Origin: Syntrophales bacterium
Lineage (GTDB): Bacteria; Desulfobacterota; Syntrophia; Syntrophales; PHBD01
Length of the DNA: 64,000 nucleotides
Direction of reading: 5' to 3'
Assembly: GCA_963668175.1 (NCBI GenBank)
Contig: OY764159.1
Span: 1,728,001-1,792,000, forward strand
Below are positions 24,425 through 64,000 of the stretch, piece after piece. Every line of letters starts with the position of its first letter. The stretch's first letter is position 1. The position numbers and the translations under genes are program-made. Under the pieces are notes generated by a model. It did not search any database. It was given only the letters and a program-made list of their open reading frames with translations, and had not been told where the DNA came from.

Positions 24425-24500
24425 GGGCCCTTAGCTCAGCAGGTAGAGCAACTGACTCTTAATCAGTAGGTTGTCGGTTCGATCCCGACAGGGCTCACCA
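24425..24500 (+). tRNA. tRNA-Lys (anticodon CTT)
   Basis: GGGCCCT/AGGGCTC acceptor stem, TAGCTCAG D-arm, CTGA-CTCTTAA-TCAG anticodon arm, GGTTCGATCC T-arm, encoded CCA; 76 nt. Confidence 0.97.
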
Positions 24501-24508
24501 GAAAATAC

Positions 24509-24546
24509 AGGGGTTTCGAGCGTTTCCGCTTGGAGCCCCTTTTTTT
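24509..24546 (+). terminator. Terminator after tRNA-Lys, carried on the left arm of module 1
   Basis: AGGGGTTTCGAGCG / CGCTTGGAGCCCCT plus T run; near-identical copy at about 27353-27389. Confidence 0.75.
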
Positions 24547-24771
24547 CGTTTCCCGTCAGACCTCGTCATTTTGATCGTTTCCGCACCCAAATTGAACCGC
24601 CATGCGGCTGCGTCGCGGAATGCGTATTTCAAAAAGCCTTTGGATGGCGAAACGAAATCGGCGACAAAGATTTCCTCTGTTGCATCTGCTTATCGGTTGC
24701 GCGAATAATCGATGAGCAATGAAGATAACCCGTTGTGATCTTCAAATCCGGACGGGTTTTCCGGGGGCGTG

Positions 24772-26694
24772 TCAGGCAGTCTGAAATCCGCTTGTCTGTT
24801 TCACAAGCTTCATAAACAGTTCTCTCTGTTTTTCCAGAGCAGACTTATATTGCATGGCCTCTTTTATGAAAGTGCTATTCTCGATAACCATTTTTAAGCG
24901 TTTTCTGGCCAGGACGATTTCATTTGTATTAAAATGAAGATTCTTACCAAGCAGGGCTATGATATCATTCGCACTGCAATAATTTTCATCGGACCTGGAG
25001 AGGATGTTGGAAAATATGAAGCTGAAAATATCTTGATCAAACTCATACAGCTCCTTCAAGAATTGAGATACTGCGTGAGATTTATTCCTGCCGGCCCAGT
25101 CCGTGTAATTTATGCCTGTCTTGGTTCTGGTTTCGTTGCTGTCCAGCTTATCCATGGCTTCTGATATATCCCTTTCGGAATAATTGGTAATGAGGAACCC
25201 GGCCCACACAATCCAGGTGATGGCAAGGGCATACAGGTCATGCGACCAGGATGCCTTGTAGGTGCGGAATTCATCAAATTGCTTAACCGTAATGGGTCGT
25301 ATATAGCCTTTCGTGCCTGCAAGACTTCCATTATGGCCTTCCGTCACGCACGTTCCATAATCCATAAGTGCAAACGTGCCGTCCATCGAAGCAAAAATGT
25401 TACCCGGTTTCAGGTCCCGGTGAACGTAATGCTTCTGATGGCATGTGTTCAAGTCATTTGCAATATCCCACAAGAGGAGGCGAAGGAGGGAGCGACCGTC
25501 TTGCTGTTCTTTAAGATCTTTACGCAGGCTTGTGGACGGGCACATGAGGTTCATGACCATATAGGCCTTGATGCCTCTCTTGGGATCCTTCGGCGATCTC
25601 ACGACTATCTTGTCGATGATCTTTGCCTTGCTCTGGAGCTTCTTCATTAATTCTATCTCTTTATCAAAATCCTTCAGAACAGAGTCCTGGGTGACTTTCC
25701 TCGGCTTCTCCTGTTGTTTCGGAAGGGGCTGCGGATTGGGAACGGACTTCTTCTTGGGGGCAAAGAAAAGTTTGAAGAGATTCTGTTGGGGAGCGGTCGT
25801 CTGTTTGGGGACCTCCTTTTTGGGGCCGGGGGGAGGGGATGCAGGGTGGGTATACTGATTGTGAACTTCTTTTATGGCGAGAATGTCCTTCTTCCCCTCC
25901 GATTCCATGCCATAACGGATTTTGCCGAAACTGCCTGCGGCTGAAGACTGCGCCACGATATAACCTTTGTACAGCTTATTGGCGCTGTATCTATCCGGCA
26001 CAAGCAGGGAAAGACGCGTGGTTTTTGCTTCGGAGCCCTTGCCGATCGTTATCTTGAATTCACCGTTTGGAGATTGCGGTGTCTTGTATTTCTTCCCGAT
26101 TCCTCCCATCGCATACTCCGGAGTGATGGACGGGGTGAATGCAAGAATTTGCTGGGCCCAGCCGTGATGGTCATAGATGTTGTCCTTGTCCCATATCCGG
26201 TATATTTTGGGTGCAGGGCCTTTTGAAACAAGGTCGAAACCGCTGTCGTCGTGGATACTTTCGCTTTGGAAAGGGCTGGCTTGAACCAAATCGTAAGGAG
26301 CATCAATCTCCGGCTGTTCCTTAAGCTTGTCAATTTCATTAAGCAGAATCGCCCCCTGGATATCAAGAATCGATTCCCAGGCCTTTTGTTCATTTCTTGA
26401 TCGGTCCGCCTCCGTGATCGATCTGATGAGGTCCATAATGACATGATCGGATGGCAATGGTGATTTCTCCATATATTCATATGGTTCCACTTTGCAAAGA
26501 AGAAGCCAGCATGTCGGCAGGATGTTCGTCTGACCGTTCTTGAATACAAGATCCTCGACGATATGCTTGACCCAGCGAAGTTGCCAGGGGGCAGTTAAAA
26601 ACGGGTCCGGTTTGATACACAAAAAGCCCTGGTGCAGAACCTCACCCTTAATGGCCTTGCCGGACTTCGGGTCTCTCCAGGTTTCTCTGGGCAT
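24772..26694 (-). CDS. Hanks-type Ser/Thr protein kinase with an uncharacterised N-terminal region
   Basis: AGSFGKI, LAIKE, HRDLKPGN, DYG, AGTKGY, DLYALA; AAAGGAGG RBS before ATG 26694. Confidence 0.85.
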   Translation of the reverse strand: MPRETWRDPKSGKAIKGEVLHQGFLCIKPDPFLTAPWQLRWVKHIVEDLVFKNGQTNILPTCWLLLCKVEPYEYMEKSPLPSDHVIMDLIRSITEADRSRNEQKAWESILDIQGAILLNEIDKLKEQPEIDAPYDLVQASPFQSESIHDDSGFDLVSKGPAPKIYRIWDKDNIYDHHGWAQQILAFTPSITPEYAMGGIGKKYKTPQSPNGEFKITIGKGSEAKTTRLSLLVPDRYSANKLYKGYIVAQSSAAGSFGKIRYGMESEGKKDILAIKEVHNQYTHPASPPPGPKKEVPKQTTAPQQNLFKLFFAPKKKSVPNPQPLPKQQEKPRKVTQDSVLKDFDKEIELMKKLQSKAKIIDKIVVRSPKDPKRGIKAYMVMNLMCPSTSLRKDLKEQQDGRSLLRLLLWDIANDLNTCHQKHYVHRDLKPGNIFASMDGTFALMDYGTCVTEGHNGSLAGTKGYIRPITVKQFDEFRTYKASWSHDLYALAITWIVWAGFLITNYSERDISEAMDKLDSNETRTKTGINYTDWAGRNKSHAVSQFLKELYEFDQDIFSFIFSNILSRSDENYCSANDIIALLGKNLHFNTNEIVLARKRLKMVIENSTFIKEAMQYKSALEKQRELFMKLVKQTSGFQTA

Positions 26695-26869
26695 GATGCC
26701 TCCTTTGTCGAGTAGGGGTGATGCAAATATTCCCGTGCGCATTCCTGTATCTTGGGTTTAACGACTGCGATCTTGAAGCGGAGTGGGGAAACTGTGAACT
26801 GAATTGTGGGTATTGTCAAGATTAAATATCAGTAAAATGACTTAAGAATAGACCGGCATCCCCCCGAAA

Positions 26870-27228
26870 TCATGCAGGCGGGAGGAGGGGAAGGGTCGGG
26901 GCGCGGTCGCTCCGGACGGCGAGGCCTTTGAGGACGCCCATGACGAGTTCTCCCGTCTTGTGGTCCAGGGCGCTTGTCGGCTCGTCGCAGACGACGAGTT
27001 TCGGGTCGTGAACCAAAGCGCGGGCGATGGCCACCCGCTGCTGCTGGCCGCCTGAAAGCTCATTCGGCAGGGACGCCTCCCGCCCCGTCAGCCCCACCTG
27101 GGCCAGGCACTCCGTAGCCCGGACCGCTGCCTTCTCTTCCTTCTGTCCGTTGATGAGCAGCGGGATGCCGATATTCTCCACGATGCTTAAGGTCGGGATG
27201 AGATTGAAGGCCTGGAAGACGAACCCGC
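26870..27228 (-). pseudogene. Internal fragment of a LolD/MacB-type ABC ATPase
   Basis: [24 protein letters not shown] and DEPTSALD present; Walker A and H-loop absent. Confidence 0.85.
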
Positions 27229-27236
27229 TTTGCTGC

Positions 27237-27444
27237 CATGTGGTCATTTTTCGTCGTCAAATGCTTATTCATTTCATCATGTTAAAATAGCGCATATTAC
27301 TCTTAATCAGTAGGTTGTCGGTTCGATCCCGACAGGGCTCACCATGAAATACAGGGGTTTCGAGCGTTTCCGCTTGGAACCCCTTTTTTCGTTTCTCGTC
27401 AAATCTCGTCATTTTTAACCAGTTCTGCACCCAAAATGCACCCA
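27237..27444 (+). repeat. att junction B (conserved left arm + tRNA-Lys 3' core + right arm)
   Basis: Core 27299-27344 is identical to 24455-24500; left arm shared with junctions C and D; right arm similar to 24501-24600. Confidence 0.9.
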
Positions 27445-27832
27445 CTACGCAATCTTCATTTTCCCCATTTCGGCCTTCATCATTTCATCAACGACCGGGA
27501 GGAATTCTCAACCCCCTGACACGATTCTTTCGGTGGAATCATGAAGTCATGTTTGTTCTCCGTCTCCTTCGGGCAATTCAACCATGTTGTCAATCAGGAC
27601 CCGCTGCCCAATCACTAATAATTAGAGGATATACTGCTTGGGAGTGCGCAAACGGTTAGGGAGTAATAACGCCCGTGACTCTTTCGAGACTATCCTGTCC
27701 CCCATATCCTTTTGGGGCAACTTGTGATAAATTCACTCCCAATAAAAGATAAAAACTCAGGGAGGCATTAGGGTGGAGAAGTTCATCCGTTGCGGTCCCG
27801 GAGGGCAAATTATTAACCAATACAGGATAAGT

Positions 27833-29500
27833 ATGAAATATAAACAAACTTATGCGGAAGTGAAGAAGGGCAACGACCTGTTAGAGGCGGAGATCAAGCG
27901 GCAGGCCAAGTTAAAAAGAGCCCTCATAGAGACAGAGAGTTTCTACCGAACGATCTGGGAAAGCTCGCTCACCGGCCTCTACATCGCCCAAAACGGCATT
28001 TTCCAGGCCGTTAACCCCATCCCGGCCCTGTTCACAGGCTACAGCAAAGATGATCTCGTGGGAAAGAAATCGGACAGCATCATCCATCCCGACGACAAGG
28101 AGGCCGTAAAGAAAAACGCCCACGCGATGCTTCTGAAAAAGAGCTCCACGCCCTACGAATTCAGAATCCTCTCTAAGGACAAACATATCCGCTGGGTCAT
28201 GGAATACGTCGCGCCTACGACTTATAACGGAAAGCCGGCAATCCTCGGCAATTTCATGGACATCACCGCCCGGAAGGACTTTGAATCGAAACTGAAAGAA
28301 TCGGAGAACCTTTACCGGACCATCTTTGAAAATACAGGTTCGGCAACGATCATCATCGAGGACGACATGACCGTCTCCCTCATGAACTCCGAGTTCGAAA
28401 GGATGACGGGATACCGAAAGGAAGAGTGGGAAGGGAAGAAGAAGTGGATCGAATATATCTCGAAAGAACAGCAGCCCTGGATGAAAAAATACCATAAACT
28501 GCGGAGACTCAATCATGAGGCCGCCCCACGCCGCTACGAACACGAGATCATCCGCAGTGATGGGAGTGTCGTTAGCGTTCTGATCACCATCGACATGATT
28601 CCCGGTACCAAGAAGAGTGTCGCCTCCCATACGAACATCACCGATTGGAAAAAGGCCCAAGAGAAACTGAAGGAATCTGAAAATCTTTACCGCGCGATTT
28701 TTGAAACGACTGGGGCCGCAACGGTCATCATGGAAGACGACATGACTATCTCCCATATGAACTCGGAGTTCGAGCGGATGACGGGCTATCGCAGAGAGGC
28801 ATGGGAAGGAAAGAAAAAATGGACCGAATACGTCCTTAATGAAGATCTTCCTTGGATGATTGATTACCATACTCAACGTCGCCTCGACCGCAGCGCTCCC
28901 CCGCGGAACTACGAGCATCGGCTGGTGGACAGCAAAGGGAGGATCAGGCATATGTACCTTACCGTCGATATGATCCCCGAAACGAAAAAGAGCCTCGCGT
29001 CCTTCGTGGATGTTACGGACTGGAAGGAGGCGGAAACCCGCCTGAAGAAAAGAGAAGAAGAACTCCAGGCCAAGTCCCGGAACCTTTCGGAATTAAACAC
29101 GGCCCTTCGTGTCCTCTTGAAACAGCGTGAAGATGACCGCGAAGAGTTCGAGGAAAAGGTGCTGTCCAACGTCAGGGAATTTGTCCTGCCTTACGTTCAA
29201 ACATTGAAAAAAAGTAAGATGCCGGCGAAAGACCTGGCCTATGTGGGCATTCTGGAGTCGAATATTCAGGACATCATCTCGCCATTCGCCCGCAAGATTT
29301 CGTCCAAGTACATGCAGCTCACGCCCAAAGAAGTGCAGATAGCCTACTTGATCAAGGAAGGCAAGACCAGCAAGGAGATCGCCGAGGCGATGAATCTCTC
29401 CAAGTGTGCCGTCGATATCCACCGTTACCGGCTCCGGAACAAACTGGGCCTGAACAACAAGAAAGCCAACCTGAGAATGCACCTGATGAACATTTCATAA
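27833..29500 (+). CDS. Multi-PAS domain LuxR-family transcriptional regulator
   Basis: Three PAS/PAC repeats (IHPDDK..., ESENLYR.IFE.TG twice); C-terminal LTPKEVQIAYLIKEGKTSKEIA...HR..LRNKL HTH. Confidence 0.9.
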   Translation: MKYKQTYAEVKKGNDLLEAEIKRQAKLKRALIETESFYRTIWESSLTGLYIAQNGIFQAVNPIPALFTGYSKDDLVGKKSDSIIHPDDKEAVKKNAHAMLLKKSSTPYEFRILSKDKHIRWVMEYVAPTTYNGKPAILGNFMDITARKDFESKLKESENLYRTIFENTGSATIIIEDDMTVSLMNSEFERMTGYRKEEWEGKKKWIEYISKEQQPWMKKYHKLRRLNHEAAPRRYEHEIIRSDGSVVSVLITIDMIPGTKKSVASHTNITDWKKAQEKLKESENLYRAIFETTGAATVIMEDDMTISHMNSEFERMTGYRREAWEGKKKWTEYVLNEDLPWMIDYHTQRRLDRSAPPRNYEHRLVDSKGRIRHMYLTVDMIPETKKSLASFVDVTDWKEAETRLKKREEELQAKSRNLSELNTALRVLLKQREDDREEFEEKVLSNVREFVLPYVQTLKKSKMPAKDLAYVGILESNIQDIISPFARKISSKYMQLTPKEVQIAYLIKEGKTSKEIAEAMNLSKCAVDIHRYRLRNKLGLNNKKANLRMHLMNIS

Positions 29501-29504
29501 TTTG

Positions 29505-29583
29505 TTACAAATTTTCCACAATTTTTGTAATATTTATGTAATTAGCGTTTGATAATATTACAATTTCGTGACAACTTTTGTAA
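29505..29583. promoter_or_regulatory. Two TTACAA-N14-TTGTAA palindromes upstream of hbd (candidate operator)
   Basis: 29505-29530 and 29558-29583, offset 53 bp, in an AT-rich intergenic region. Confidence 0.55.
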
Positions 29584-29744
29584 CATTCATCAAACATTGA
29601 TTAAAACCCTTCCTTGCCCCTAAATACACCCATCACAATAAAACTGGTCCGCGGCAGTCCAAGCAGCATCTATGATCGGGCCCGACATTTCGGGACTTTC
29701 GCGGAAGTGCCGGTTTTCCACCCAACACAAGGAGTAGATTAACT

Positions 29745-30608
29745 ATGAAAATCAATACAATAGGAGTAATCGGGGCGGGGAACATGGGGCGTCAGATCGC
29801 CCTGCAGTGCGCCCTGTCGGGTTTCGAGGTTTACTGCACGGACACGATCGCCGTTGTTCTGCAAAGCGCCGAGGCCTTTTCGCGCAAGTGGCTCGCCGAC
29901 CGCGTCGCCAAGGGCAAGATGGCCGAGGATGAAGCGAAGACGGTAGGCGCCCGCCTGCACTATACGGCCGAACTGGCCGAGGCCGCCAAGGGCGCAGACC
30001 TCATCATCGAAGCCATCATCGAGATATTGGAAACGAAGCGGACGCTCTTCAAAGAGCTGGACAAGCTCTGTCCGGCCCACACGATCCTTGCGACCAACAG
30101 CTCGTACATCGTGAGTTCCAGGATCGCCGACGCCACGAAACGGCCCGACAAGGTCCTGAACATGCACTTCTTCAACCCGGCCCTCGTCATGAAGCTCGTC
30201 GAGGTCGTCCAGGGTCCCCACGTCTCCGACGAAACGGTCGAGACGGTCATCGAAGTCGGCAAGGCGTTGGGCAAGGTGCCCACACGGGTGAACAAGGAGA
30301 TCTACGGCTTCATCTGCAACCGGATGTTCAGCGCCATCACCAAGGAGGCCTGCTATCTCCTGGATCTGGGCATCGCCTCCATCGAAGACATCGACAACGC
30401 CGCGAAGAACGGCCTGGGGCATCCGATGGGTCCCCTGCAGCTCCTCGACATGACGGGCATCGACCTCGAATACTACGTCTCCATGGAACGTTACCAGGAG
30501 ACGCGGAACCTCGCCGACAAGCCGAGTCCCGGCCTCGTGGAGCGTTACGCCCGGGGCGACTACGGCAGGAAGACGGGCAAGGGATTCTACGATTACACGA
30601 AGAAGTGA
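29745..30608 (+). CDS. hbd: 3-hydroxybutyryl-CoA (3-hydroxyacyl-CoA) dehydrogenase
   Basis: GVIGAGNMG, IEAIIE, ATNSS, MHFFNP, GHPMGPL. Confidence 0.9.
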   Translation: MKINTIGVIGAGNMGRQIALQCALSGFEVYCTDTIAVVLQSAEAFSRKWLADRVAKGKMAEDEAKTVGARLHYTAELAEAAKGADLIIEAIIEILETKRTLFKELDKLCPAHTILATNSSYIVSSRIADATKRPDKVLNMHFFNPALVMKLVEVVQGPHVSDETVETVIEVGKALGKVPTRVNKEIYGFICNRMFSAITKEACYLLDLGIASIEDIDNAAKNGLGHPMGPLQLLDMTGIDLEYYVSMERYQETRNLADKPSPGLVERYARGDYGRKTGKGFYDYTKK

Positions 30609-30639
30609 GACGGCGACGTTTTCCGGAAAGGATAGAGAC

Positions 30640-31404
30640 ATGAATTACGAAAACATTCAGTTCGCGGTGAGCGGGGCGACGGCCGTTTTAATGCTGAACC
30701 GTCCGAAGGCGATGAACGCCCTGAACCGCGCGCTTGTGGACGAACTGGACCATGCCGTGGACCGGATCGCGAACGACCCGTCCATCGCGGCGGTTGTCCT
30801 CTCGGGCGAGAAGAACTTCGCGGCGGGGGCGGACATCACGTCGATGGTGGAGATGGACCCGGAAGCGGCGAAGGCGTTTGCCTTCACGCCGGCGTATCAG
30901 AAGATCGAAGACCTGGCAAAGCCGACGATTGCCGCGATATCGGGCTTCGCCCTGGGGGGCGGCCTGGAGCTGGCCCTGGCGTGCGACATCCGGATCGCCG
31001 GTCCCGATGCGAAGCTTGCCTTCCCCGAGATCAATATAGGGATATTCCCCGGCGCCGGGGGGACGCAGCGTCTGCCCCGGCTGGTGGGACCCGCCCGGGC
31101 AAAGGAGCTGATCTTCCTGGGGACGACGCTCGACGCCCAGAAGGCGCTCGAATACGGTCTCGTGAACAGCATCGCGGACGATCCGCTGGATGCGGCCATG
31201 AAGATGGCGTTGAAGCTGGCGGGGAAGCCCGCCGTGGCCCTGGCGCGCGCGAAGGAATGCATCAACATCGCCTCGGAGTCGGGCCTTAAGGCGGGACTGA
31301 AAGCCGAGGCGGAGAAATGGGGCAGCCTCTTTACGACGGCGGACCAGAAGGAAGGCATGCGGGCCTTCCTGGAGAAGAGGAAACCGGTCTACACGGGCCG
31401 ATAA
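30640..31404 (+). CDS. crt: Enoyl-CoA hydratase (crotonase)
   Basis: LNRPKAMNAL, FAAGADI, ALGGGLELALACD, PEINIGIFPGAGGTQRL. Confidence 0.9.
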   Translation: MNYENIQFAVSGATAVLMLNRPKAMNALNRALVDELDHAVDRIANDPSIAAVVLSGEKNFAAGADITSMVEMDPEAAKAFAFTPAYQKIEDLAKPTIAAISGFALGGGLELALACDIRIAGPDAKLAFPEINIGIFPGAGGTQRLPRLVGPARAKELIFLGTTLDAQKALEYGLVNSIADDPLDAAMKMALKLAGKPAVALARAKECINIASESGLKAGLKAEAEKWGSLFTTADQKEGMRAFLEKRKPVYTGR

Positions 31405-31422
31405 CACACAGAAGGAGCAGTT

Positions 31423-32604
31423 ATGAGAGACGTGGTCATTATCGGCGGTGCGAGAACCGCCATTGGAAACTATATGGGATCGCTGGCGGGGTTCAACTCC
31501 GTCGCGCTGGGCATCTTTGCGCTGAAAGGCGCCCTTGAGAAGACGGGGGTGGCCATGGGCGACCTGGAGTGCCTCGTTGCTGGTCACGTGAACCAGGCGG
31601 GTGCGCCGGGGAACTCGGCCAGACACATCGCCATGCGGGCGGGCCTGCCGATTACGTCCTACGCCTACACGGTGCACCAGCAGTGCGCATCGTCCATGCG
31701 TGCGGCGGAGTGCCTGTCCCAGGACATCATGCTGGGGAAGTACGACGTGGGCGTCGTGGTGGGCATCGAGTCCATGAGCACGGCGCCGTATCTCCTGATG
31801 GGCGCCCGGAAGGGATACCGCCTCGGGGATGCGGAAAAGGTGCAGGACAGCCTCATGATCGGGGGCCTGGTCGACGATCTTCTGGGTTATCACATGGGGA
31901 TCACGGCGGAGAACATCGCGGCCGATTACGGGATCACGCGTGAAGAGCAGGACGAGTTTGCCCTCATGAGCAACATGCGGGCGTGCAAGGCGATCCAGGA
32001 GGGGTGGTTCAAGGACGAGATCGTCCCGGTGGAGATCAAGACGAAGAAGGGGATATCCGTCTTCGATACGGACGAGCATCCGCAGGCGAACACGTCGATG
32101 GAGGCGTTGGCGAAGCTGAAGCCCGCCTTCAAGAAGGACGGGACGGTGACGGCGGGGAACGCCTCCGGACTGAACGACGCGGGATCGGCCCTGATCATGA
32201 TGTCGGCGGAAGCGGCGAAGGCGAAGGGCTTCAAGCCTGTCGCCAGGGTCGTCGCCTCCTCCCCCGGTTCGGTGGAGCCCCGGATCATGGGCATGGGTGT
32301 GGTTCCCGCGGTGCGTAACGCCCTGAAGTTCGCGGGGCTTTCGCAGGACCGGATCGATTACTGGGAGCTGAACGAGGCGTTTGCGGCGCAGGTTTTGGGA
32401 GTGAACCGCGAGTTGAAGATCGGCCTGGACCGCGTGAATGCCGTGGGCTCGGGGATCGGCCTGGGTCATCCGGTGGGTGCGACGGGCGCGCGTCTCATCA
32501 TCACCATGATCAACGAGATGAAGCGCCGGGGCGTGAGATACGGCTGCGCCTCCCTGTGCGCAAGCGGCGGACCCGCCCATGCGTTTATCGTCGAATCTAT
32601 CTAA
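31423..32604 (+). CDS. Acetyl-CoA acetyltransferase (thiolase)
   Basis: QQCASS (catalytic Cys), NEAFAA, GHPVGATG, SLCASGG. Confidence 0.93.
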   Translation: MRDVVIIGGARTAIGNYMGSLAGFNSVALGIFALKGALEKTGVAMGDLECLVAGHVNQAGAPGNSARHIAMRAGLPITSYAYTVHQQCASSMRAAECLSQDIMLGKYDVGVVVGIESMSTAPYLLMGARKGYRLGDAEKVQDSLMIGGLVDDLLGYHMGITAENIAADYGITREEQDEFALMSNMRACKAIQEGWFKDEIVPVEIKTKKGISVFDTDEHPQANTSMEALAKLKPAFKKDGTVTAGNASGLNDAGSALIMMSAEAAKAKGFKPVARVVASSPGSVEPRIMGMGVVPAVRNALKFAGLSQDRIDYWELNEAFAAQVLGVNRELKIGLDRVNAVGSGIGLGHPVGATGARLIITMINEMKRRGVRYGCASLCASGGPAHAFIVESI

Positions 32605-32641
32605 CGCAGCGATTGCGAAACCATATAATGGAGAAGAGAAT

Positions 32642-33778
32642 ATGAATTTTCAAGTATCTGAAGAACACGAAGCCTTAAGGACCATGGCCCATAAATTTTC
32701 TGAACAGGAGATATTGCCCGTTATCCTGGAATACGATGAGAAAGGGGAGTTTCCCTGGCCCATCGTCAATAAAATGCACGAAGTCGGCCTGCTGACCGCC
32801 GGTGTGCCGGAAGAGTATGGTGGACCCGGTATCGACATGCTGGGCCAGATTATCGTCACGGAAGAGATCGCCTACGGCTGCGGCGGCTGCGCCGCGACCA
32901 TGGCGGCAAGCAGCCTGCTGTCGCCTGAGCCGGTCGTCGTCGGCGGCACCCCGGAACAGAAGAAGATGTACTTCGACGTCCTGAACGAAGGCAAGCTGGG
33001 CGCCTTCTGCCTCACCGAACCGGGAGCGGGTTCCGATGTCGCGGGGCTTTCGATGACGGCCAAGCGCGACGGCGACTACTACATACTGAACGGCACGAAA
33101 CAGTTCATTACGAACGGCGGCGTAGCCGACATATACACTGTCTTCGCCACCACGGACAAGAACCTCCGTTTCAAGGGAATCGTCGGCTTCATCGTTGACC
33201 GCAAAACTCCCGGCGTCTCCGTCGGACCGGAAGAAAAGAAGATGGGCATCTGCACCTCCGATACCCGCCAGGTGATCTTTGAGGATGTACGCGTACCCGT
33301 TGCCAACCGGCTCGGCGAGGAGGGCAAGGGGTTCGGCGTCTGCATGCAGGCCCTCGACCTCTCCCGCCCCTCCGTGGCGGCGGAGGCCATCGGCATCGCC
33401 CTCCGGGCCTTCGAGATTGCGGTGAAGTATTCCCAGGAGAGGACGGCCTTCGGGCAACCCATCGCAAGCCTCCAGGCTATCCGTTTTATGCTTGCGGACA
33501 TGGCCATGAGCATCGAAGCGGCGAGACTTCTCACTTATAAGGCCTGCTGCCTCGCCATGGCCAAACAGCCGTTCAATTATATGGCATCTTATGCCAAGTG
33601 CTTCGCCGCCGATATGGCGATGAAGGTCACGACCGACGTTGTCCAGATCCTGGGCGGCTACGGATATCTGAGGGAATATGGCGCGGAAAAATGCATGCGG
33701 GATGCGAAAGTCATGCAGATCTACGAAGGCACGAACCAGATCCAGCGCGTCGTGATCGCCAACCACATCTACAAATAG
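32642..33778 (+). CDS. Short-chain (butyryl-CoA-type) acyl-CoA dehydrogenase
   Basis: FCLTEPGAGSD, NGTKQFITNG, GGYGY, QIYEGTNQIQR. Confidence 0.9.
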   Translation: MNFQVSEEHEALRTMAHKFSEQEILPVILEYDEKGEFPWPIVNKMHEVGLLTAGVPEEYGGPGIDMLGQIIVTEEIAYGCGGCAATMAASSLLSPEPVVVGGTPEQKKMYFDVLNEGKLGAFCLTEPGAGSDVAGLSMTAKRDGDYYILNGTKQFITNGGVADIYTVFATTDKNLRFKGIVGFIVDRKTPGVSVGPEEKKMGICTSDTRQVIFEDVRVPVANRLGEEGKGFGVCMQALDLSRPSVAAEAIGIALRAFEIAVKYSQERTAFGQPIASLQAIRFMLADMAMSIEAARLLTYKACCLAMAKQPFNYMASYAKCFAADMAMKVTTDVVQILGGYGYLREYGAEKCMRDAKVMQIYEGTNQIQRVVIANHIYK

Positions 33779-54643: not shown

Positions 54644-54692
54644 GCTTCGCCGGGCCGGGAATTCTATGCACTTGAGGGTTGGAAAGGAGAAA

Positions 54693-56030: not shown

Positions 56031-56163
56031 CTGCTTGCGGAGACGGTTTGTATGGAAAACGGCCGGATGAAACGCGCCTGTTCTCTTCATCCGGCCGATG
56101 ACAATGTGCCGTCAGGAACTGTATTCTCATATGCCGTTTCCGATAATATCCCGACCGACGGCA

Positions 56164-56895
56164 ATGAACTTAAGGGGAAGACTGTACGTGAGCAGTGCGC
56201 CGGAATGGCAGTATGACGAAAGTAAGTTCCCCGGTATCGACTACGCACGGGACGAGGTTGTCGCCGCTTACGATTGCCTCCATAAAAAATTCCGGGACTA
56301 TGCGAAGGCGGCCGACGAGATCGTTCGCCGTCTTGGTCTTGGCGCCGGCAGCACGGTGATCGATTTCGGTTCGGGTACGGGGGCCTTCGCCTTGCATGCG
56401 GCCAAAGTATGCCGAACGGTTTATGCCGTCGATATCTCGGCGGCAATGATCGAATACTGCCGCCGGCGGGCAGCGGAGCTGGGACTGACGAACATCGTGT
56501 TCCGCCATGGCGGTTTGCTGTCATACGAACACAAGGCCGAGGCGGCCGATGCGGCGGTGTGCGTGGCCGTGCTTCATCACCTGCCGGATTTCTGGAAGGC
56601 GGCCGCCCTCAGCCGCTGCCGGGACGCGCTGAAGCCGGGGGGAAAACTTTTGCTCTTCGATATCGTTTTCCCCTCCGGAGAAGCCGATCTGACGCAAGAG
56701 ATCGACGGCTGGATATCGTATCTCAATACACTGGCCGATGCGCGCTTGGCGGAGGAAGCGGCGATCCATGTCCGGGAAGAGTTCAGCACATATGACTGGA
56801 TCATGGAAGGCATGATCCGAAGAAGCGGTTTCCATATCGATTCGGCGGAGTATGCAGCCGGCTTTGCGGCGACCTATATCTGTACAAATAAATAA
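56164..56895 (+). CDS. Class I SAM-dependent methyltransferase (start uncertain, possibly GTG 56188)
   Basis: VIDFGSGTG, YAVDIS, VLHHLPD, LKPGG. Confidence 0.85.
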   Translation: MNLRGRLYVSSAPEWQYDESKFPGIDYARDEVVAAYDCLHKKFRDYAKAADEIVRRLGLGAGSTVIDFGSGTGAFALHAAKVCRTVYAVDISAAMIEYCRRRAAELGLTNIVFRHGGLLSYEHKAEAADAAVCVAVLHHLPDFWKAAALSRCRDALKPGGKLLLFDIVFPSGEADLTQEIDGWISYLNTLADARLAEEAAIHVREEFSTYDWIMEGMIRRSGFHIDSAEYAAGFAATYICTNK

Positions 56896-56957
56896 TGGAG
56901 GCGGAAGGCGGGCGGCCGTTCGGCGCGTGCCTTCCTGCAGCGGAAGGAGTGTGGAAC

Positions 56958-58217
56958 ATGGCGGTGAACGTCATCATGCCTCAACTGGGTCTGACGATGA
57001 CCGAGGGCATGGTTACCAAGTGGCATAAGGCGGCCGGCGAAAAGATTGCGAAGGGCGAAGTCCTGGTGGAGATCATGACCGAAAAGATTACCCAGCAGAT
57101 TGAATCGCCCGCAGACGGCGTCGTTTTGGCCATTCTGGTTCCGGAAGGGGCAACAGTGCCGGTCAAAGCTTTATTGGCCGTCATCGGCGAAGAAGGAGAA
57201 CGGGTGGATCATACTGCGCCCACCGGAAATAATGAAGACGAAGGGCCGAACGGGCAATCGAATGTCGCTGCCGTCAAGGCGTCGCCGGCGGCCAAAAAAC
57301 TGGCCCGCGAAAGCGGTGTCGATCTGACGCTGGTGACAAGTACGGGCAGCGGCGGGCGGCTGACGGAAAAGGATGTGCTGCGGTACCTGGACGGGCAGAA
57401 AAAGAAAATTCGTGCAACGCCCCTGGCGGCGAAAATCGCCGTAGAACAGAACATCGATCTGTCCGGGATAAGCAAGGAAGGCAGAATCGCCAAAGCGGAC
57501 GTATTGGCGGCAGTCGCGAAAGCGGAAGGCCCGTCACCCGGGGCGGAGGAGGCGTCATCCGTGCCCCTCGCCGGGACGCGGAAAATAATTGCAGACCGGA
57601 TGAGTTTGAGCTGGCATACGGCGCCGCATGTGAATCTGACCGTGTCGGTTGACATGTCGTCCGTCGTCGGTCTGAATAGGAACACCAAAGCCGAGAAGAA
57701 ATTTTCCGTTACGGAAATGATGGTCGCCGTTGCCGCCCGGGCATTGTCCGAATACGGCGACATCAATGCCAGTCTCGTGGACGGCAAGGTGATGCGGTAC
57801 AAGACCGTCAATATCGGTGTGGCCGTCGCCCTCGATAAGGGATTGATCGTCCCGGTCATCAGGGATGCCCAGAGAAAAGGCTTGCCCGCGATCCGGAGGG
57901 AAATCGCCGATCTCGCCGCCAGGGCGCGGCAGGGGGGCTTGCTGCCCGAGGAAGTGACCGGCGGGACGTTCACGATAACCAATCTCGGCATGTTCGGCGT
58001 GGACCATTTCGCCCCGATCATCAATCCGCCGGAAAGCGCCATCCTGGCCGTGTGCCGCGTCGTCGACCGGCCGGTGGTCGTGGACGGCGCCGTCGAAATC
58101 CGGCCGATGGCGAACCTGTGCCTGTCCTTCGATCACCGTCTGATCGACGGCGCTCTGGCCGCCAGGTTCATGGCGCACGTCCGCGAATTGATGGAACAGC
58201 CGCTGTTGCTGCTCTAG
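56958..58217 (+). CDS. Dihydrolipoamide acyltransferase E2 (AcoC-like)
   Basis: Lipoyl domain EIMTEKI, two E3-binding repeats (ASPAAKKLA, ATPLAAKIA), TFTITNLG, SFDHRLIDG. Confidence 0.92.
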   Translation: MAVNVIMPQLGLTMTEGMVTKWHKAAGEKIAKGEVLVEIMTEKITQQIESPADGVVLAILVPEGATVPVKALLAVIGEEGERVDHTAPTGNNEDEGPNGQSNVAAVKASPAAKKLARESGVDLTLVTSTGSGGRLTEKDVLRYLDGQKKKIRATPLAAKIAVEQNIDLSGISKEGRIAKADVLAAVAKAEGPSPGAEEASSVPLAGTRKIIADRMSLSWHTAPHVNLTVSVDMSSVVGLNRNTKAEKKFSVTEMMVAVAARALSEYGDINASLVDGKVMRYKTVNIGVAVALDKGLIVPVIRDAQRKGLPAIRREIADLAARARQGGLLPEEVTGGTFTITNLGMFGVDHFAPIINPPESAILAVCRVVDRPVVVDGAVEIRPMANLCLSFDHRLIDGALAARFMAHVRELMEQPLLLL

Positions 58218-58269
58218 GCCGATGAAGGAACATATCCTGCGATCGGTAATAAAATGATGAGGTAGGCGA

Positions 58270-59670
58270 ATGAAAAGAGTCGTCGTCATAGGCGGAGGCC
58301 CTGCGGGCTACGTGTCGGCCATCCGCGCCGCGCAACTGGGGGCGGAAGTCCATCTGGTGGAAAACGGCCGGTTGGGCGGCACATGTCTGAATGTCGGCTG
58401 TATTCCCACCAAGGTGCTGCTCCATTCGGCCGATCTGTACCGCCTGGTCAGGTGCGGTAAAATTGCCGGTCTGAGTGCGGAAAAAGCGGATATGGACTGG
58501 CCGGAATTGCTGCGCCACAAGCAGGCGGTAATCGCCCGATTGGTCGGGGGCGTCGAAGGCTTGTTGAAGGCGAACAAGGTCGAGGTCCATCGGGGCCTCG
58601 CTTCCCTCATGGACGGCCGCACGGTGGAGATCGAGAACGTCCGGCCGCAGAGGCTGACCGCCGATGCCGTTGTCCTGGCAATGGGATCGGTGCCGCTCAA
58701 GTTGCATTTTCCCGGAGCCGATCTGCCCGAGGTGATAGACAGTACGGCAGCGCTGGAACTGCGGCATGTGCCGAGCTCGCTGGTCATCATCGGCGGCGGC
58801 GTCTTGGGCGTGGAGTTCGGGGCCCTGTTCAGCGCCTTGGGCTCCCAAGTCACGATCGTCGAAATGCTTCCGGAAATTCTGCCCGGGCTGGACAGGAAGA
58901 TTGCCGCCGCCGTGAAGCGGGAGATGGAAGGCCGCGGCATCAGCTTCCTCACCGGCAGCCGGGTTGCCGGTGTAAGTAAGGGTTCCACAGGCCTGACGGT
59001 CAAGGCCGTTGGGGGCGATACCGCTCGTGATCTGTCCGCCGATTATGTGCTGGTGGCGGCAGGTAGAGTGCCCGCAACGGAATATATCGGCCTGGAAAAG
59101 GCGGGCATAGAAATGCGTGGTGCAAAGATCGCCGTAGACGAAAATTTCCGTACCAATGTCCCTGGTATTTATGCCGCGGGCGACTGCAACGGTGAACTCA
59201 TGCTGGCTCATGCGGCTTCCGCCCAGGGGATCGCAGCCGTGGAGCATGCACTGACGGGGCATGCTTCCTATCATAAAAACACCATCCCGTCCTGCATCTA
59301 TACTTCCCCGGAAGTCGCCTCCGTGGGATGGACAGAAGAAGAGGCGGATCGTCAGGGATTGCAATATAAAGCCGGCGTCTTTCCGCTGGCGGCGAACGGA
59401 AAGGCCTGCATAGAAGACGGTTCGTCGGGACTCATCAAGATCGTGGCCGGGGCCAGGTACGGCGAAATTCTCGGGGTGCATATTTACGGTCCCCGTGCCA
59501 CGGAGCTGATCGCCGAGGCGGCTTTGGCCATCCGCCTGGAAGCGACGGCGGACGAGCTGGTTTCCACGATTCATCCCCACCCGACGATCAGCGAAGCGCT
59601 GGGGGAGGCGGCGCTTGCGGTGAACGGCAGCAGCATTCATTATTTCCGCAGGCCGTCATCCTTTCAATAG
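58270..59670 (+). CDS. lpdA: Dihydrolipoamide dehydrogenase E3
   Basis: GGGPAGY, GGTCLNVGCIPTK, HPHPTISE. Confidence 0.95.
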   Translation: MKRVVVIGGGPAGYVSAIRAAQLGAEVHLVENGRLGGTCLNVGCIPTKVLLHSADLYRLVRCGKIAGLSAEKADMDWPELLRHKQAVIARLVGGVEGLLKANKVEVHRGLASLMDGRTVEIENVRPQRLTADAVVLAMGSVPLKLHFPGADLPEVIDSTAALELRHVPSSLVIIGGGVLGVEFGALFSALGSQVTIVEMLPEILPGLDRKIAAAVKREMEGRGISFLTGSRVAGVSKGSTGLTVKAVGGDTARDLSADYVLVAAGRVPATEYIGLEKAGIEMRGAKIAVDENFRTNVPGIYAAGDCNGELMLAHAASAQGIAAVEHALTGHASYHKNTIPSCIYTSPEVASVGWTEEEADRQGLQYKAGVFPLAANGKACIEDGSSGLIKIVAGARYGEILGVHIYGPRATELIAEAALAIRLEATADELVSTIHPHPTISEALGEAALAVNGSSIHYFRRPSSFQ

Positions 59671-59677
59671 GTAAACT

Positions 59678-60352
59678 ATGGACGGAAACAACGGCAGGAA
59701 CAGACGATGCGCCTTCCAGCGGGAAGGGGTCGTAACGTACGAGCACGGCCTGGAACTGCAGGAAACCGCGCGCGGTCTGGTGGAGAAGGGTGAGTGGGAC
59801 GGGATTTTGCTCCTGCTTGAGCATGCGCCTGTGATCACCGTCGGGAGCGGCGGCGGCCTGGAGCATCTGCGTACCGATGCGGATACGCTCGCGGGAAGGG
59901 GCATTGCCGTCCTCCGCTCCGAACGGGGCGGTAATATCACCTGTCACAATCCGGGACAGCTCGTCGGCTACCCGGTCCTCAATCTGAGTCTCTGGCGCCG
60001 CGATTTATCCTGGTACAGGGAATCCCTGGAAGAGACGCTGATCAGGACCCTCGCACGTTTTGGAATCGTCTCCGGGCGAAAGGCCCGTTACAACGGCGTG
60101 TGGGTGGAGGACAGTAAAATCGCCGCCATCGGCGTGACGGTCCGGAACTGGATCACGAAGCACGGCTTTGCCCTGAACGTCCAAAACGATCTGGCCTTGT
60201 TTCAGGACATCGTCCCCTGCGGGATTCGCGATTATGGAGTTACAAGTCTGGTCGAAACGGCCGGCAGGCCGATGGGAATGGACGAAACGGCCGCTGCCTT
60301 GGTTGAGGAATTCTCTTTCGTCTTTCGATGCGCCGTAAGGGAATTGCAATGA
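59678..60352 (+). CDS. lipB: Octanoyltransferase
   Basis: LEHAPVIT, RGGNITCHNPGQLVGYP, KIAAIG, HGFALN, IVPCG. Confidence 0.93.
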   Translation: MDGNNGRNRRCAFQREGVVTYEHGLELQETARGLVEKGEWDGILLLLEHAPVITVGSGGGLEHLRTDADTLAGRGIAVLRSERGGNITCHNPGQLVGYPVLNLSLWRRDLSWYRESLEETLIRTLARFGIVSGRKARYNGVWVEDSKIAAIGVTVRNWITKHGFALNVQNDLALFQDIVPCGIRDYGVTSLVETAGRPMGMDETAAALVEEFSFVFRCAVRELQ

Positions 60353-61263
60353 TCCGAAATGATGGGGCAAAGACACCGGCGATCGATACGAAAAAGCCCG
60401 CGTGGCTGGTTCAGCGGTTCCGCGGCGGCGACGCGTTCAACGGCATGGTCGATCTCCTCACGGATCTCGGTTTGAATACGGTCTGCCAGAGCGCCTCCTG
60501 CCCCAATATCGGGGAATGCTTTAATGCCGGGACGGCCACTTTTTTAATTCTCGGTGGCCTGTGTACAAGGAACTGCCGGTTCTGTGCCGTGCCGAAGGGA
60601 CAGCCGAGCTCACCCGATCCGGACGAGCCGGGAAAAGTCGCGCAGGCGGCCCGGGTCGCGGGTATCAGGCATGCCGTTGTCACGTCCGTTACGCGCGACG
60701 ACCTTGACGATGGCGGTGCGGACCAGTTTGTCCGTTGCATTCAACGCCTCCGCGAGACGGTTCCGGAGACCTCCGTTGAGGTCCTGACGCCCGATTTTCG
60801 AGGTGACAGAAAGGCGTTGCGGGCCGTTCTGGCCGCTGGACTGGATGTGTTCAATCACAATGTGGAGACGGTACCGCGACTCTATCCGTTGGTGAGACCG
60901 GGAGCCGATTACCATCGTTCCCTGCGAATGTTGCGCGAAGCGGCCCGTCGCATCAGGGTTGTCAAGAGTGGGATCATGGTCGGCATGGGAGAGGACGAGA
61001 AAGAGGTGCGAGGGGTCTTTCGCGATCTCGTCGCCGCCGGTGTCGCGGTCCTCACCATCGGACAATATCTGAGACCTTCCCCCGGGCAAATGGAGGTGGT
61101 CGAATACGTCCATCCCGAGCGGTTCCGTTCATACGGGGAGATGGCGCTGGCGGCCGGGTTCAAGTCCGTGGCGGCCGGGCCGCTGGTGCGCAGTTCTTAT
61201 CATGCGGAACGGTTATTTGGAAACGGGATACCCTGCCCGATACCGCCGGCCGACGCCCGGTAA
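60349..61263 (+). CDS. lipA: Lipoyl synthase
   Basis: TVCQSASCPNIGEC, CTRNCRFC, NHNVETV, GPLVRSSY. Confidence 0.95.
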   Translation: MIRNDGAKTPAIDTKKPAWLVQRFRGGDAFNGMVDLLTDLGLNTVCQSASCPNIGECFNAGTATFLILGGLCTRNCRFCAVPKGQPSSPDPDEPGKVAQAARVAGIRHAVVTSVTRDDLDDGGADQFVRCIQRLRETVPETSVEVLTPDFRGDRKALRAVLAAGLDVFNHNVETVPRLYPLVRPGADYHRSLRMLREAARRIRVVKSGIMVGMGEDEKEVRGVFRDLVAAGVAVLTIGQYLRPSPGQMEVVEYVHPERFRSYGEMALAAGFKSVAAGPLVRSSYHAERLFGNGIPCPIPPADAR

Positions 61264-61440
61264 CACATGAGAAATATCTTTCCTGGGAAGGGCTTCATCC
61301 GTCCGGAAGCCTTATCTTGTCATCCCGACTATCCCGTTTTGATGATTCCCTCCCGTATCGCAACAAAGAGCCGGAAATTACAGATAGGCCATGGTTATCA
61401 AAAGCGTGAATATAAAGAAATAAGTTGAATAAGATTAAAA

Positions 61441-61469
61441 TTGACAACGGTCTCGTAATTGTTTAGTAT
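61441..61469 (+). promoter_or_regulatory. Sigma70-type promoter of the XRE regulator
   Basis: TTGACA-17 bp-TAGTAT. Confidence 0.6.
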
Positions 61470-61511
61470 TCATAACCACATACATTAAATCAGACGACGA
61501 CATGAGGAAAT

Positions 61512-62111
61512 ATGATCGAAAAACAGATTGCCGACAGCATGCGAAAGATCCGTAATTCCAAGGGAATGACGCTGAAACAGCTGGGCGAGAAAATCGGCAT
61601 TTCTCCCGGCATGCTTTCTCGCCTGGAAAACAATCAGTCGTCGCCTCCCATTGCGACGCTGGCGAAGATCGCCCAGGGACTGGACGTTCCCATCAGCGTT
61701 TTTTTCGAGGGCAACGGTGACGACACGGATCTCAAATATATCGTGACACGCAGCGACCGGCGCCGCCAGGTGATACGCCGCGGCAGCGATATCGGATTCA
61801 TTTATTACGCCTTCAACACCGCCAGGGACCTTCACCTCATTGAAGCCTTCGTGATGGAGCATCCCCCGCTCCGAAAGAAAATGAAAGTTCTGTTCGATCA
61901 CCCGGGGGAGGAGCTTATTCTGGTATTAAAGGGTACCATAGAACTGGTCTACGGCTATGAGACGATACGCCTGGAGGAGGGCGATGCCATCCACTTCGAT
62001 CCCTCGGTTCCCCATCGCGCCCAGAACGTGGGTAAGGAGAAGTCGGAATGCCTGGTGGTCATTGCCGGTCAAAAGGGCTATTTCAAACGCAACAACGCAA
62101 CATCCGCATAA
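61512..62111 (+). CDS. XRE-family HTH plus cupin transcriptional regulator
   Basis: TLKQLGEKIGISPGMLSRLENN HTH; HPGEE...GDAIHFD...PH cupin. Confidence 0.9.
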   Translation: MIEKQIADSMRKIRNSKGMTLKQLGEKIGISPGMLSRLENNQSSPPIATLAKIAQGLDVPISVFFEGNGDDTDLKYIVTRSDRRRQVIRRGSDIGFIYYAFNTARDLHLIEAFVMEHPPLRKKMKVLFDHPGEELILVLKGTIELVYGYETIRLEEGDAIHFDPSVPHRAQNVGKEKSECLVVIAGQKGYFKRNNATSA

Positions 62112-62363
62112 CGTTATTTTCCCTGCCCGTCTCCCTCCGGAATGTCTTCCGGAGCTTTGTTGCTCTATGCGCGGCGACGCGATCCTTTCCGGTTGGCCCG
62201 AAAGCGGGGCATTGCCTCCTGCAGTTGGTTGATATCGGGGGTAGGTCCATGCCGGACGTGTGCCCGATCAGTGCCTCATCCCTCTAAATAGCCTCTTCAC
62301 AGTGAAGGCGGAATGTCAAACCTGAAAGGTGTCGGTCTTGTTTTTGATGCCGACAAAATAAAC

Positions 62364-62392
62364 TTGACATCGGTAAAAATGTTTACTATTAT
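62364..62392 (+). promoter_or_regulatory. Sigma70-type promoter upstream of the acoR-like gene
   Basis: TTGACA-17 bp-TATTAT. Confidence 0.6.
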
Positions 62393-62598
62393 GCAACTAA
62401 ATACGTACAACGAAACATTTCAACCTGCCTGCAACAGCCGCTCCGCTCTTGACGCCAGATAACCCAGCCTTCGTCGGCTGGTCACAACGCAGCGCATGAA
62501 CTCCCGGCATTCCGGAAGCATAACCGGAATGCGACGAAGAACAGCGCGGCGAATAAACATCTTCATTCGTTTGTTTACTGAATAGTCGGAGGTGAACC

Positions 62599-64000
62599 AT
62601 GGTACGCGAACTTGCCACGAGTATGCCCGATGACTTTGCCGGATTCAACAGATCGGAAGCGAATACCTTTAGACCTTCCACCCTGAGACCCATTATCATG
62701 GATTCCTGGAGAAGGTCGAGGGAGTATGGGGTCTATCGGGAGGAGTGCGTCAGCAGCGTCGTTCTGACTGCCGGGGAATTGGAACTCCTGCTGCGTAAAA
62801 ATTCCGAACTTATAGACGCCGCGATGCCTTTCATACACAATCTATACAGGCTTGTCGCCAGTTCGGGATTTGTGGTTATTCTTGTCGACAGGGAAGGATA
62901 CATTCTGGAGGTTGTCGGAGCCGTCGATCGGCTGGGTATCGCCGAGAATATCCATTATGTCAAAGGAATGAAATGGACCGAGGAACTTGTCGGCACGACC
63001 GCGATCGGACTTGCCCTTCGGGAGCGCCAGCCCATTCAAGTGGCGGGGGATGAGCACTATTGCTGCAGCTTCAGGAACTGGGCTTGCTCGGCGGCTCCGA
63101 TAGTCGATGAAAACAACGATCTTCTCGGCGTGTTGAGCGTCACAGGTTTGAAAAAGTATGTCCACTGCCACACCCTGGGCATGGCGGTGTCGGCGGCCAC
63201 CGCGATGACCAACATCCTGCGGGAAAGAAAAATCCAGAAAAAATTGGAGCAATCGGCCCAGATACATTCCACCATCGTTCATTCCATTTCCGACGGTCTT
63301 CTCATGCTGGACAAGAACGGTATCGTTACCTTCATCAACCCCACCGGGGCGCGAATACTGGGTGTGAAAAGGGATGAAGCCACGGGCAGACATATTTCAT
63401 CGATTGTCGATTTCAAACCCGTCGTGCTCCAGGTATTGGAGAGGGGCCAGGGGTATGCCGACAGGGAATTCTTTATCGAAACCAGGAAAGGCGTCGTGCA
63501 TTTCATCAAGACGGCCATTCCGATCAGGGACAAGGACGGCAACCTGGACGGGGTCATCGATATCTTCCGGGAGATCAAGAAGGTGCGCCAGTTGGTCAAT
63601 CGGATGGTGGGGTCGTCCGCTAAATTCTCTTTCGACGATATCCTGGGTTCGAGCGCGGCCGTCAAGGAAGTCGTTCGCATGGGGAAAATCGCCGCCAACA
63701 GCTTCGCCAATTTGCTGATCCAGGGGGAAAGCGGCACCGGCAAGGAGATGATTGCCCAGGCCGTCCATAATGCAAGCGCGCGGGCGGAAGGGCCGTTCAT
63801 CGCGATCAATTGCGGAGCTATCCCGCGGGATCTCGTCGAAAGCGAATTGTTCGGCTACGAGGAAGGGGCGTTTACCGGGGCGAGGCATAACGGCCGGCCG
63901 GGAAAATTTGAATTGGCCCACGGAGGAACCATATTCCTGGACGAAATAGGCGAGACGCCCGTGGACATCCAGGTAAAACTCCTGAGGGTGCTTCAGGATA
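62599..64000 (+). CDS. acoR: Sigma54-dependent activator, GAF-PAS-AAA+ (AcoR-like); truncated by the window end and absent from the ORF track
   Basis: Read manually: GGAGG RBS, ATG 62599, [36 protein letters not shown]. Confidence 0.85.

Follow-up and report, generated by a model that had tools for sequence, protein, structure and literature searches.

A tandem array of integrase-less catabolic modules at a tRNA-Lys gene of a Syntrophales bacterium

Tandem accretion at one chromosomal target is an already published route of genomic island growth, known from streptococci and Dehalococcoides. Here, a tandem array situated at the tRNA-Lys(CTT) gene of a Syntrophales bacterium is described. The analyzed DNA, referred to as the window, is a stretch of 64,000 nt (G000:C1:1728001-1792000; OY764159.1, GCA_963668175.1) from a genome of 4.57 Mb assembled as a single contig (G000). 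Annotation was extended over another 75 kb past the window, and positions in this part are given as window-equivalent, which means window numbering extended past 64000. The array comprises five modules, each being the DNA between neighbouring junctions of the series J1 to J6, where J1 is the tRNA itself. The locus is probably a tandem stack of decayed site-specific elements, known as cis-mobilizable elements (CIMEs), at a tRNA hotspot. Its size, clean boundaries, metabolic cargo and testable hybrid junctions J1-J3 are the noteworthy features. As read here, an anaerobe from a syntroph lineage gained, at one tRNA, about 81 kb devoted to the catabolism of acyl-CoA, 2-oxoacids and amino acids.

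CIMEs are defined as elements which lost their integration and transfer genes but retain attL and attR, and in tandem accretion most of the neighbours are decayed (PMC5704250). The array resembles the CIMEs of the ICESt1/ICESt3 family in the kept att sites, the tandem stacking at one target and the chimeric internal att sites, and a case at tRNA-Lys is known (PMC5704250). No integration or transfer genes are present in the array, and attL- or attR-type sites were recognised at the sequence level at all ends. Decay from an integrase element is indicated in module 2 by an integrase tail; the other modules show only arm homology to intact elements. The array differs from CIMEs in having five members in a row, no autonomous member in the genome, catabolic operons of 10-40 kb and three altered exchange regions; its mobilisation is putative.

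The ssrA locus of Dehalococcoides carries tandem islands with metabolic cargo. Of these, 15 lack integration modules and have been proposed as CIMEs, and the distal ones are proposed to be fixed (PMC3146451). Both systems belong to anaerobes and form tandems within ~100 kb of one RNA gene, but the Dehalococcoides islands use the tmRNA gene, a 20-bp repeat and serine recombinases, whereas the array uses a tRNA anticodon loop and tyrosine-integrase arms (PMC3146451). In Prochlorococcus tycheposons a tRNA acts as seed, newcomers push the old elements outward, and partial tRNAs and fragmented integrases mark the older events (bioRxiv 10.1101/2020.12.28.424599). The push-outward model and the distal retention of useful cargo given there are like those considered here, although the array has no integrase or replication module and belongs to a different host and different integrase families. 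Tandem elements at one spot were also seen in a genomic-island preprint (10.64898/2026.01.13.699239). The Islander collection (PMC4383910) holds anticodon-centred tDNA islands (site A), in which an intact tRNA is accompanied by displaced 3' fragments in the same orientation with crossover in the anticodon loop, as in the array; an integrase is required per island. The array contains no integrase gene and is hence filtered out by that definition. Island finders requiring an integrase would discard such an array.

Integrons possess the integrase IntI, an attI site and attC cassettes that are small, mostly single-gene and promoterless, arranged as an ordered stack with the newest member proximal and members without a recombinase of their own. 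The ordered stack at one site, the proximal position of the newest member and the lack of recombinases in the members are also found in the array, and a preliminary description of this DNA had proposed an integron-like platform of addressable cassettes. The array, in contrast, has no IntI, and its junctions are tRNA-derived and of attP type with arm repeats; no reshuffling was seen. Its members are of 2.8-40.5 kb and represent multi-gene operons with their own regulators. None of the seven genome matches reached the TIGR02249 cut-off for integron integrases (best 83 of 265 bits). The array fails two defining integron features, IntI and small cassettes. With no nearby or cognate integrase and with altered exchange regions in J4-J6, the proposed platform was not upheld and an integron-like machine is ruled against.

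Junction anatomy and the missing mobility genes

The last 46 nt of tRNA-Lys(CTT) recur five times in the same orientation (Table 1). The copies at 27299, 39401 and 49576 were known from the preliminary description and are confirmed, with blastn E-values from 3e-18 to 2e-9 against the 4.57-Mb genome, as are its module sizes of ~2.8, ~12.1 and ~10.2 kb, the spacings from one tRNA half to the next being 2844, 12102 and 10175 nt. Extension of the contig, proposed there as a search for further repeats and a recombinase, yielded the junctions J5 and J6 and with them a fourth and a fifth module, and no tyrosine recombinase. Modules 1-5 measure 2.8, 12.1, 10.1, 15.1 and 40.5 kb (80.8 kb in total). The copies differ from the tRNA at 0 (J2), 1 (J3), 7 (J4), 6 (J5) and 5 (J6) of the 46 positions.

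The tRNA half is present in each junction, but the repeated unit is larger than first reported. It is composed of a conserved 65-nt left (P) arm, followed by the tRNA half and a terminator hairpin. At this exact spacing the 65-nt arm occurs in five copies in the array and one elsewhere in the genome. The arms of J2-J5 depart from their consensus at 9-12 positions and that of J6 at 27 of the 65. J3 and J4 are 84% identical over 141 nt, and the right (P') arm behind J1 is 88% like that behind J2 over ~155 nt. On the basis of arms and integrases two types, family A and family B, were distinguished, both labels being of this analysis. All five right ends of the modules are of family-A type; modules 1 and 2 begin with a left end of family-B type. 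This anatomy supports the earlier proposal of a tandem stack formed by site-specific integration at the anticodon loop with attP-like junctions.

The 7-bp exchange region, taken to be the anticodon loop, where homology to the tRNA starts, is intact in J1-J3 and altered in J4, J5 and J6, each differently and with no two neighbours matching. Identity in this region is required by most tyrosine recombinases (PMC2817482). Because the exchange regions of J4-J6 are altered and mismatched, modules 3-5 are probably fixed in place, and modules 1 and 2, bounded by the intact J1-J3, would be the sole remaining potential substrates. IntDOT is said to be an exception to the identity rule. Private substitutions fall within the 7-bp region in 4 of ~10 cases (P = 0.05) and all substitutions in 4 of 18 (P = 0.29), counts which are suggestive only of a locking of the distal modules by selection. 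The decay of the junctions gives an approximate age order of the modules. A box for IHF was also considered, where the consensus fits the J3 arm but equally the tRNA itself, and it was not used as evidence.

Table 1. Positions of the tRNA target, junctions, integrase remnant and cargo (window numbering unless a contig is named).
Feature	Position	Strand	Basis or content
tRNA-Lys(CTT), intact; attB / J1 = attL of module 1	24425..24500	+	ARAGORN
Inferred 7-bp exchange region = anticodon loop	24456-24462		homology of copies begins at the loop
J1 terminator hairpin (24509-24540) and decayed family-B-type right arm (P')	24501..24600	+
Module 1, 656-aa protein with Ser/Thr protein-kinase domain	24772..26742	-	Pfam PF00069
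Module 1, N-terminally truncated ABC ATPase, cut at P arm	26870..27247	-	matches start at ~79-88 in full-length profiles
J2 left (P) arm, family-A type	27234..27298	+	outer arm-site block and conserved core-proximal block
J2 core, tRNA-Lys 3' half	27299..27344	+	46/46, exchange region intact
J2 terminator (27353-27384) and family-B right arm	27345..27444	+	two 8-nt direct repeats, 27426-27433 and 27437-27444
Family-B tyrosine integrase remnant	27445..27495	-	stop codon and last 16 codons; position-anchored scoring
Module 2 cargo	27773..39127	+	PAS-LuxR regulator, 3-hydroxyacyl-CoA dehydrogenase, enoyl-CoA hydratase, thiolase, acyl-CoA dehydrogenase, CoA-transferase, MFS, unknown, Usp, HpaB-family protein
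J3: P arm 39336-39400, core 39401-39446, terminator	39336..39480	+	45/46, exchange region intact
Module 3 cargo	39832..49030	+	PAS-LuxR regulator, two-subunit CoA-transferase, beta-oxidation set, MFS
J4: P arm 49511-49575, core 49576-49621, terminator	49511..49655	+	39/46, one exchange-region change
Module 4 cargo	49948..64000, on to window-equivalent 64566	+	E1 alpha/beta, MFS x2, IlvC, methyltransferase, E2, E3, LipB, LipA, XRE-cupin regulator, sigma-54 activator
J5 core	window-equivalent 64732 = G000:C1:1792732		40/46, exchange region changed
J6 core	window-equivalent 105259 = G000:C1:1833259		41/46, two exchange-region changes
Copies of the module 2 block and HpaB-family gene elsewhere	G000:C1:1831570-1833024, 3496235-3500583, 3556318-3560655

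Pfam assigned none of the open reading frames (ORFs) of the modules to an integrase, relaxase, transposase or phage family. Of the intergenic sequence, none of 103 stop-to-stop frames of at least 55 amino acids matched a mobility family, and two matched a zinc ribbon and a biotin carrier. The earlier statement that the three complete modules carry no recognisable gene of these kinds stands. Replication and lysogeny genes of the tycheposon kind were likewise not found in the five modules with Pfam and in the gap frames. Nothing significant was obtained in the array with tblastn (two integrases and two Rep proteins), with a hidden Markov model from 17 family-A sequences or with phmmer (25 recombinases).

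The one convincing remnant lies in module 2, directly behind the second family-B repeat of J2, in the place and orientation seen in intact genes. Its translated tail VVDEMMKAEMGKMKIA resembles the C-terminus of family-B integrases, for example VLDEMIKNEMSKFEYK. It ranked first of 130,552 stop-anchored 16-aa frames genome-wide (37.7 against 27.3 for the next) by a scoring which was devised after the candidate was seen and whose three probes are mutually related; Pfam is blind to this tail. A weaker echo of 27 nt is present ~180 nt past J6, and the array may therefore reach further than this junction. An empty site for placing its distal end was not available from G002, the closest relative sharing the flank, owing to a rearrangement at the tRNA.

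The preliminary description had expected an integrase either further downstream or supplied in trans, and neither was found in this genome. PF00589 detected six tyrosine recombinases, of which two are XerC/D-like and four reside in tRNA-Arg, tmRNA and tRNA-Sec islands. None lies near the array, including the annotated 75 kb beyond the window, and the nearest, an XerC/D-like gene, is ~317 kb off. Close relatives of the family-A and family-B integrases were not detected in the genome, where the best identity was 23-38%, to the nearest XerC/D-like protein. The integrase of the tRNA-Arg island was considered as a trans helper and rejected as a likely one, its arm repeats being not found in register at any junction.

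Related elements and the origin of the array

The core pattern was observed in 171 of 301 Syntrophales genomes, with at least two copies in 40 of the 171. Forty regions were fetched, mostly from genomes with two cores on one contig, so the sample is biased to arrays. In it, 21 modules of relatives had both ends seen; 13 of them possess a full PF00589 integrase, one a C-terminal stub and six none, and one was not fully fetched. Integrase stubs were also located directly behind junctions in the loci L044, L051, L089 and L094. Several tyrosine-integrase families are represented among the tRNA-Lys(CTT) elements, which documents this tRNA as an order-wide hotspot used by several integrase families. 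Literature searches gave no published account of a tRNA-Lys hotspot in Syntrophales among the matches listed.

Integrases of family A are 333-400 aa long and their gene points back at the tRNA; paired 8-nt repeats follow the terminator, and the right arm contains their reverse complement. In the G000 arms, the outer block of 17 nt agrees at 15 positions with the right (attR) arm of an intact family-A element in G064 and in G028, with nearly the same distance to the core, while 13 of 20,000 random 90-nt windows reached 13 of 17. For the arms behind J1 and J2, alignment to family-B left ends gave scores of 31-46, compared to shuffle maxima of 21-25, and the J2 arm with its repeats matches the attL arms of the intact family-B elements L083, L098 and L099.

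The contig G021:C5 (63 kb; loci L044-L046 and L059) is 99.6% identical to the upstream flank of G000 over 8.7 kb. The own orthologues of G021, a genome of another family, are ~70% identical to those of G000, and judged from these identities the contig is probably a stray one of the G000 species. Behind its tRNA lies an element of 41 kb that carries a family-A integrase, TraG-like protein, resolvase, type I-C CRISPR-Cas, insertion sequence copies and the replication initiator Rep3. The Rep3 gene adjoins the outer part of the same arm, and a second junction with an integrase stub follows. The presence of an integrase element at this tRNA indicates that the proximal slots vary and can hold an autonomous element. 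A variable occupancy of the locus between strains, as the preliminary description had anticipated, is thus seen for the tRNA slot of this contig. Rep3 was found in two of the 301 genomes of the order, G000 and G021.

Further afield, exact patterns of arm plus core had no match in genome, viral and metagenome contig collections, from which records very close to G000 may be absent. The search of genome contigs with the family-A integrase returned its own record alone, alignment of Rep3 to metagenomes returned nothing, and plasmid searches gave distant matches alone, below 40% among the matches listed.

The reading as a stack of decayed elements is favoured by the junction anatomy, the integrase tail at J2, the ABC gene cut at the arm, the decay away from the tRNA and the decay series in relatives. 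The history of the locus would begin with circular elements recombining successively with the anticodon loop of tRNA-Lys. Each insertion would restore the tRNA and shift the older residents, with their displaced tRNA halves, further out. Deletion of integrase and replication genes would follow, and where it also removed an internal junction, hybrids with a family-B left and a family-A right end would result. Useful catabolic operons would be kept, and near-identical copies exchanged with other chromosomal loci. Modules 3-5, having lost matching exchange regions, would now be fixed. Modules 1 and 2 may be excised or co-mobilised if an element with a cognate integrase reaches the tRNA, as in the same-species-like contig; otherwise homologous recombination between the junction repeats (140-155 nt) would be their only means of moving. 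This course of repeated integration, mobility-gene loss with hybrid ends, operon retention and later exchange of paralogues is what we infer from the features described. If it is true that an integrase in trans excises modules 1 and 2 despite their hybrid arms, such operon-sized relics would form a mobile reserve, as the CIME model predicts.

Several observations weigh against this interpretation. The family-A block is clear in two (G064, G028) of the six scored modules with a full or partial family-A integrase; the other four score 8-10 of 17, with 9-10 for G204, G223 and G263 and only the 8-nt site in G253, which implies that the match is to a sub-lineage. All five right arms belong to one lineage, found among 151 Syntrophales in G000 and G021:C5 only. 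The ends of modules 1 and 2 are mismatched, with B-type left and A-type right, and the same holds for one integrase-less module in G289. Modules 1, 3, 4 and 5 gave no integrase remnant with the 25 recombinase probes (best E 0.2), which is very clean for random erosion. J4-J6 have two core substitutions in common, and J3, J4 and J6 a third, which independent decay does not predict. Finally, the J1 arm, expected to be the youngest, is more worn than the J2 arm. As for the platform, the preliminary description had named decayed integrases in each module, the sign of ordinary eroded islands, as a finding that would refute it, and the integrase tail of module 2 partly provides this finding.

A maintained cassette system without integrases, where operon cassettes with family-A arms are inserted, excised and shuffled by the integrase of visiting elements in trans, appears unlikely. 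The integrase stub of module 2, the truncated ABC gene of module 1 and the mismatched exchange regions of J4-J6 do not suit it, even though five right arms of one lineage at an exact 65-nt spacing, no flanking mobile DNA, intact cargo with own regulators and the intact exchange regions of J1-J3 do. A helper of cognate type is present at the tRNA in G021:C5, integrase-less modules make up 6 of the 21 in relatives, and a 2.4-kb unit with Rep3 only and the same arm exists in the tmRNA island. On the other side, G000 contains no helper, the arms decay together with the cores, and the exact arm pattern was absent from the genome, viral and metagenome collections named above. A related helper-dependent capture, with a family-A right arm joined flush to host operons, even mid-gene, and paired with an available left end, was given a similarly low probability. 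Visiting integrases would excise and re-insert such units at tRNA-Lys, and mutations of the exchange region would lock the beneficial cassettes. If true, tRNA-Lys would be an operon-scale gene-capture platform for syntrophic metabolism.

The junctions could also be relics of small or empty att units, copied by recombination or duplication, with the operons deposited between them later from the paralogue pool of the host. The substitutions common to J3-J6 and the likeness of J3 and J4 fit such filling in place, as do tiny modules of 0.2-1.5 kb in relatives, cargo homologues in the same family up to 79% identical, like core genes (69-77%), and the position of copies of one gene, with four 97-98% identical copies, at the ends of modules 2 and 5. 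But the left ends differ in type, a pattern not expected if a single junction had simply been duplicated. Near-identical copies in other parts of the genome are lacking for most of the cargo, and the paralogues can be accounted for just as well by gene conversion following arrival. We regard this origin as improbable, and it is partly compatible with a stack of decayed elements.

An origin without integrases, as a scattered tRNA-derived miniature inverted-repeat transposable element, as Xer/dif-type modules (pdif, IMEX) or as an assembly artefact, is very improbable: although a further arm copy with a worn core is present 1.7 Mb away and the genome encodes two XerC/D-like recombinases, five of the six arm copies stand in one array and one orientation and the sixth inside the tmRNA island, the junction matches a dif XerD-arm motif at only 3 of 11 positions, a proper dif-like site is found at the GC-skew switch (G000:C1:2831399, minus strand), the junctions differ mutually, and the depth is even over unique stretches. 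The scattered distribution which the preliminary description had named as an alternative was accordingly not observed.

The depth data come from four of eight listed sequencing runs, compared over 20601-40500, one of which, X3, is possibly the source sample and so not independent. X3 contigs gave depth in all 30 bins of this stretch, ~42-50 over unique stretches, and break at repeats; no listed X3 piece spans the whole stretch, and the module order rests on the single-contig assembly. Junction-to-junction joints were absent among the 15 of 50 joints listed, in contigs, where rare circles are invisible. In run X1, short segments of the flank and of module 2 were present at 91-98% likeness, and three bins over the kinase gene had no coverage, at an overall depth too low to call absence. 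In X8, the sole raw-read run, the organism was not present.

Cargo of the modules and other islands

Most of the 80.8 kb is filled by 67 annotated genes, and regulators are present in modules 2-5. The repeats had been reported to fall exactly at functional boundaries. Not every boundary bears this out: module 1 ends in an ABC gene cut at the arm, whose product is without ~80 N-terminal residues. Module 1 has a GC content of 50% compared to 56% of the genome. Its kinase (24772-26742) shows a long N-terminal region without Pfam match and a linker rich in proline and lysine.

For two parts of module 2, 29729-32605 and 37673-39127, the genome contains further copies of 97-98% identity. The dehydrogenase-hydratase-thiolase block exists in three 98% identical copies and the HpaB-family gene in four, 97-98% identical, with almost only synonymous differences (0.08-0.11); modules 2 and 5 both end in one of them. 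These near-identical paralogues may reflect either recent amplification or gene conversion. From family and context, the HpaB-family genes are predicted to encode 4-hydroxybutyryl-CoA dehydratase. An ORF at 36572-37105, within the operon, had no Pfam or NCBIfam match and is predicted to encode a small membrane protein. Another ORF without match in these databases, 49079-49498, looks like non-coding DNA.

Pfam and NCBIfam characterised module 4 as an operon of 2-oxoacid/acetoin-dehydrogenase type along with IlvC, lipoylation genes and a sigma-54 activator, and module 5 as amino-acid and acyl-CoA catabolic clusters. The ketol-acid reductoisomerase at 53645-54643 scored above the NCBIfam cut-off and is placed between two MFS genes inside the dehydrogenase operon.

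Some further islands were noticed. The tmRNA island of G000 (G000:C1:3387180-3472235, ~84 kb) has its own integrase and two tmRNA 3' fragments, and its right part contains AbiEi, a resolvase, E1/ThiF and JAB-domain genes, a SET-domain gene and BrnT. The 2.4-kb unit near its right end (G000:C1:3468369-3470865; L005:13369-15865) carries a Rep3 initiator gene only; its left border is a worn half of tRNA-Lys and its right border the 65-nt arm with a 12-nt core. The tRNA-Arg(CCT) island (G000:C1:522722-535657) is of 12.9 kb, and its integrase shares 62% identity with an integrase of G280 that targets tRNA-Lys and 61% with another such enzyme of G004; a single integrase family is used at several anticodon loops. 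The tRNA-Lys element of G021:C5 additionally encodes a HEPN protein, UmuC and Fic.

Two integrase-less units of 1.5 kb, L077:183-1668 in G214 and L085:5139-6637 in G280, have end sequences common to both and paired arm-like repeats at each end, hinting at a possible family of non-autonomous mini-elements at tRNA-Lys. In G226 (L079:18032-19188), the 5' part of tRNA-Lys is duplicated 1.2 kb downstream and the 3' end is broken, unlike the usual repeats of the 3' half.

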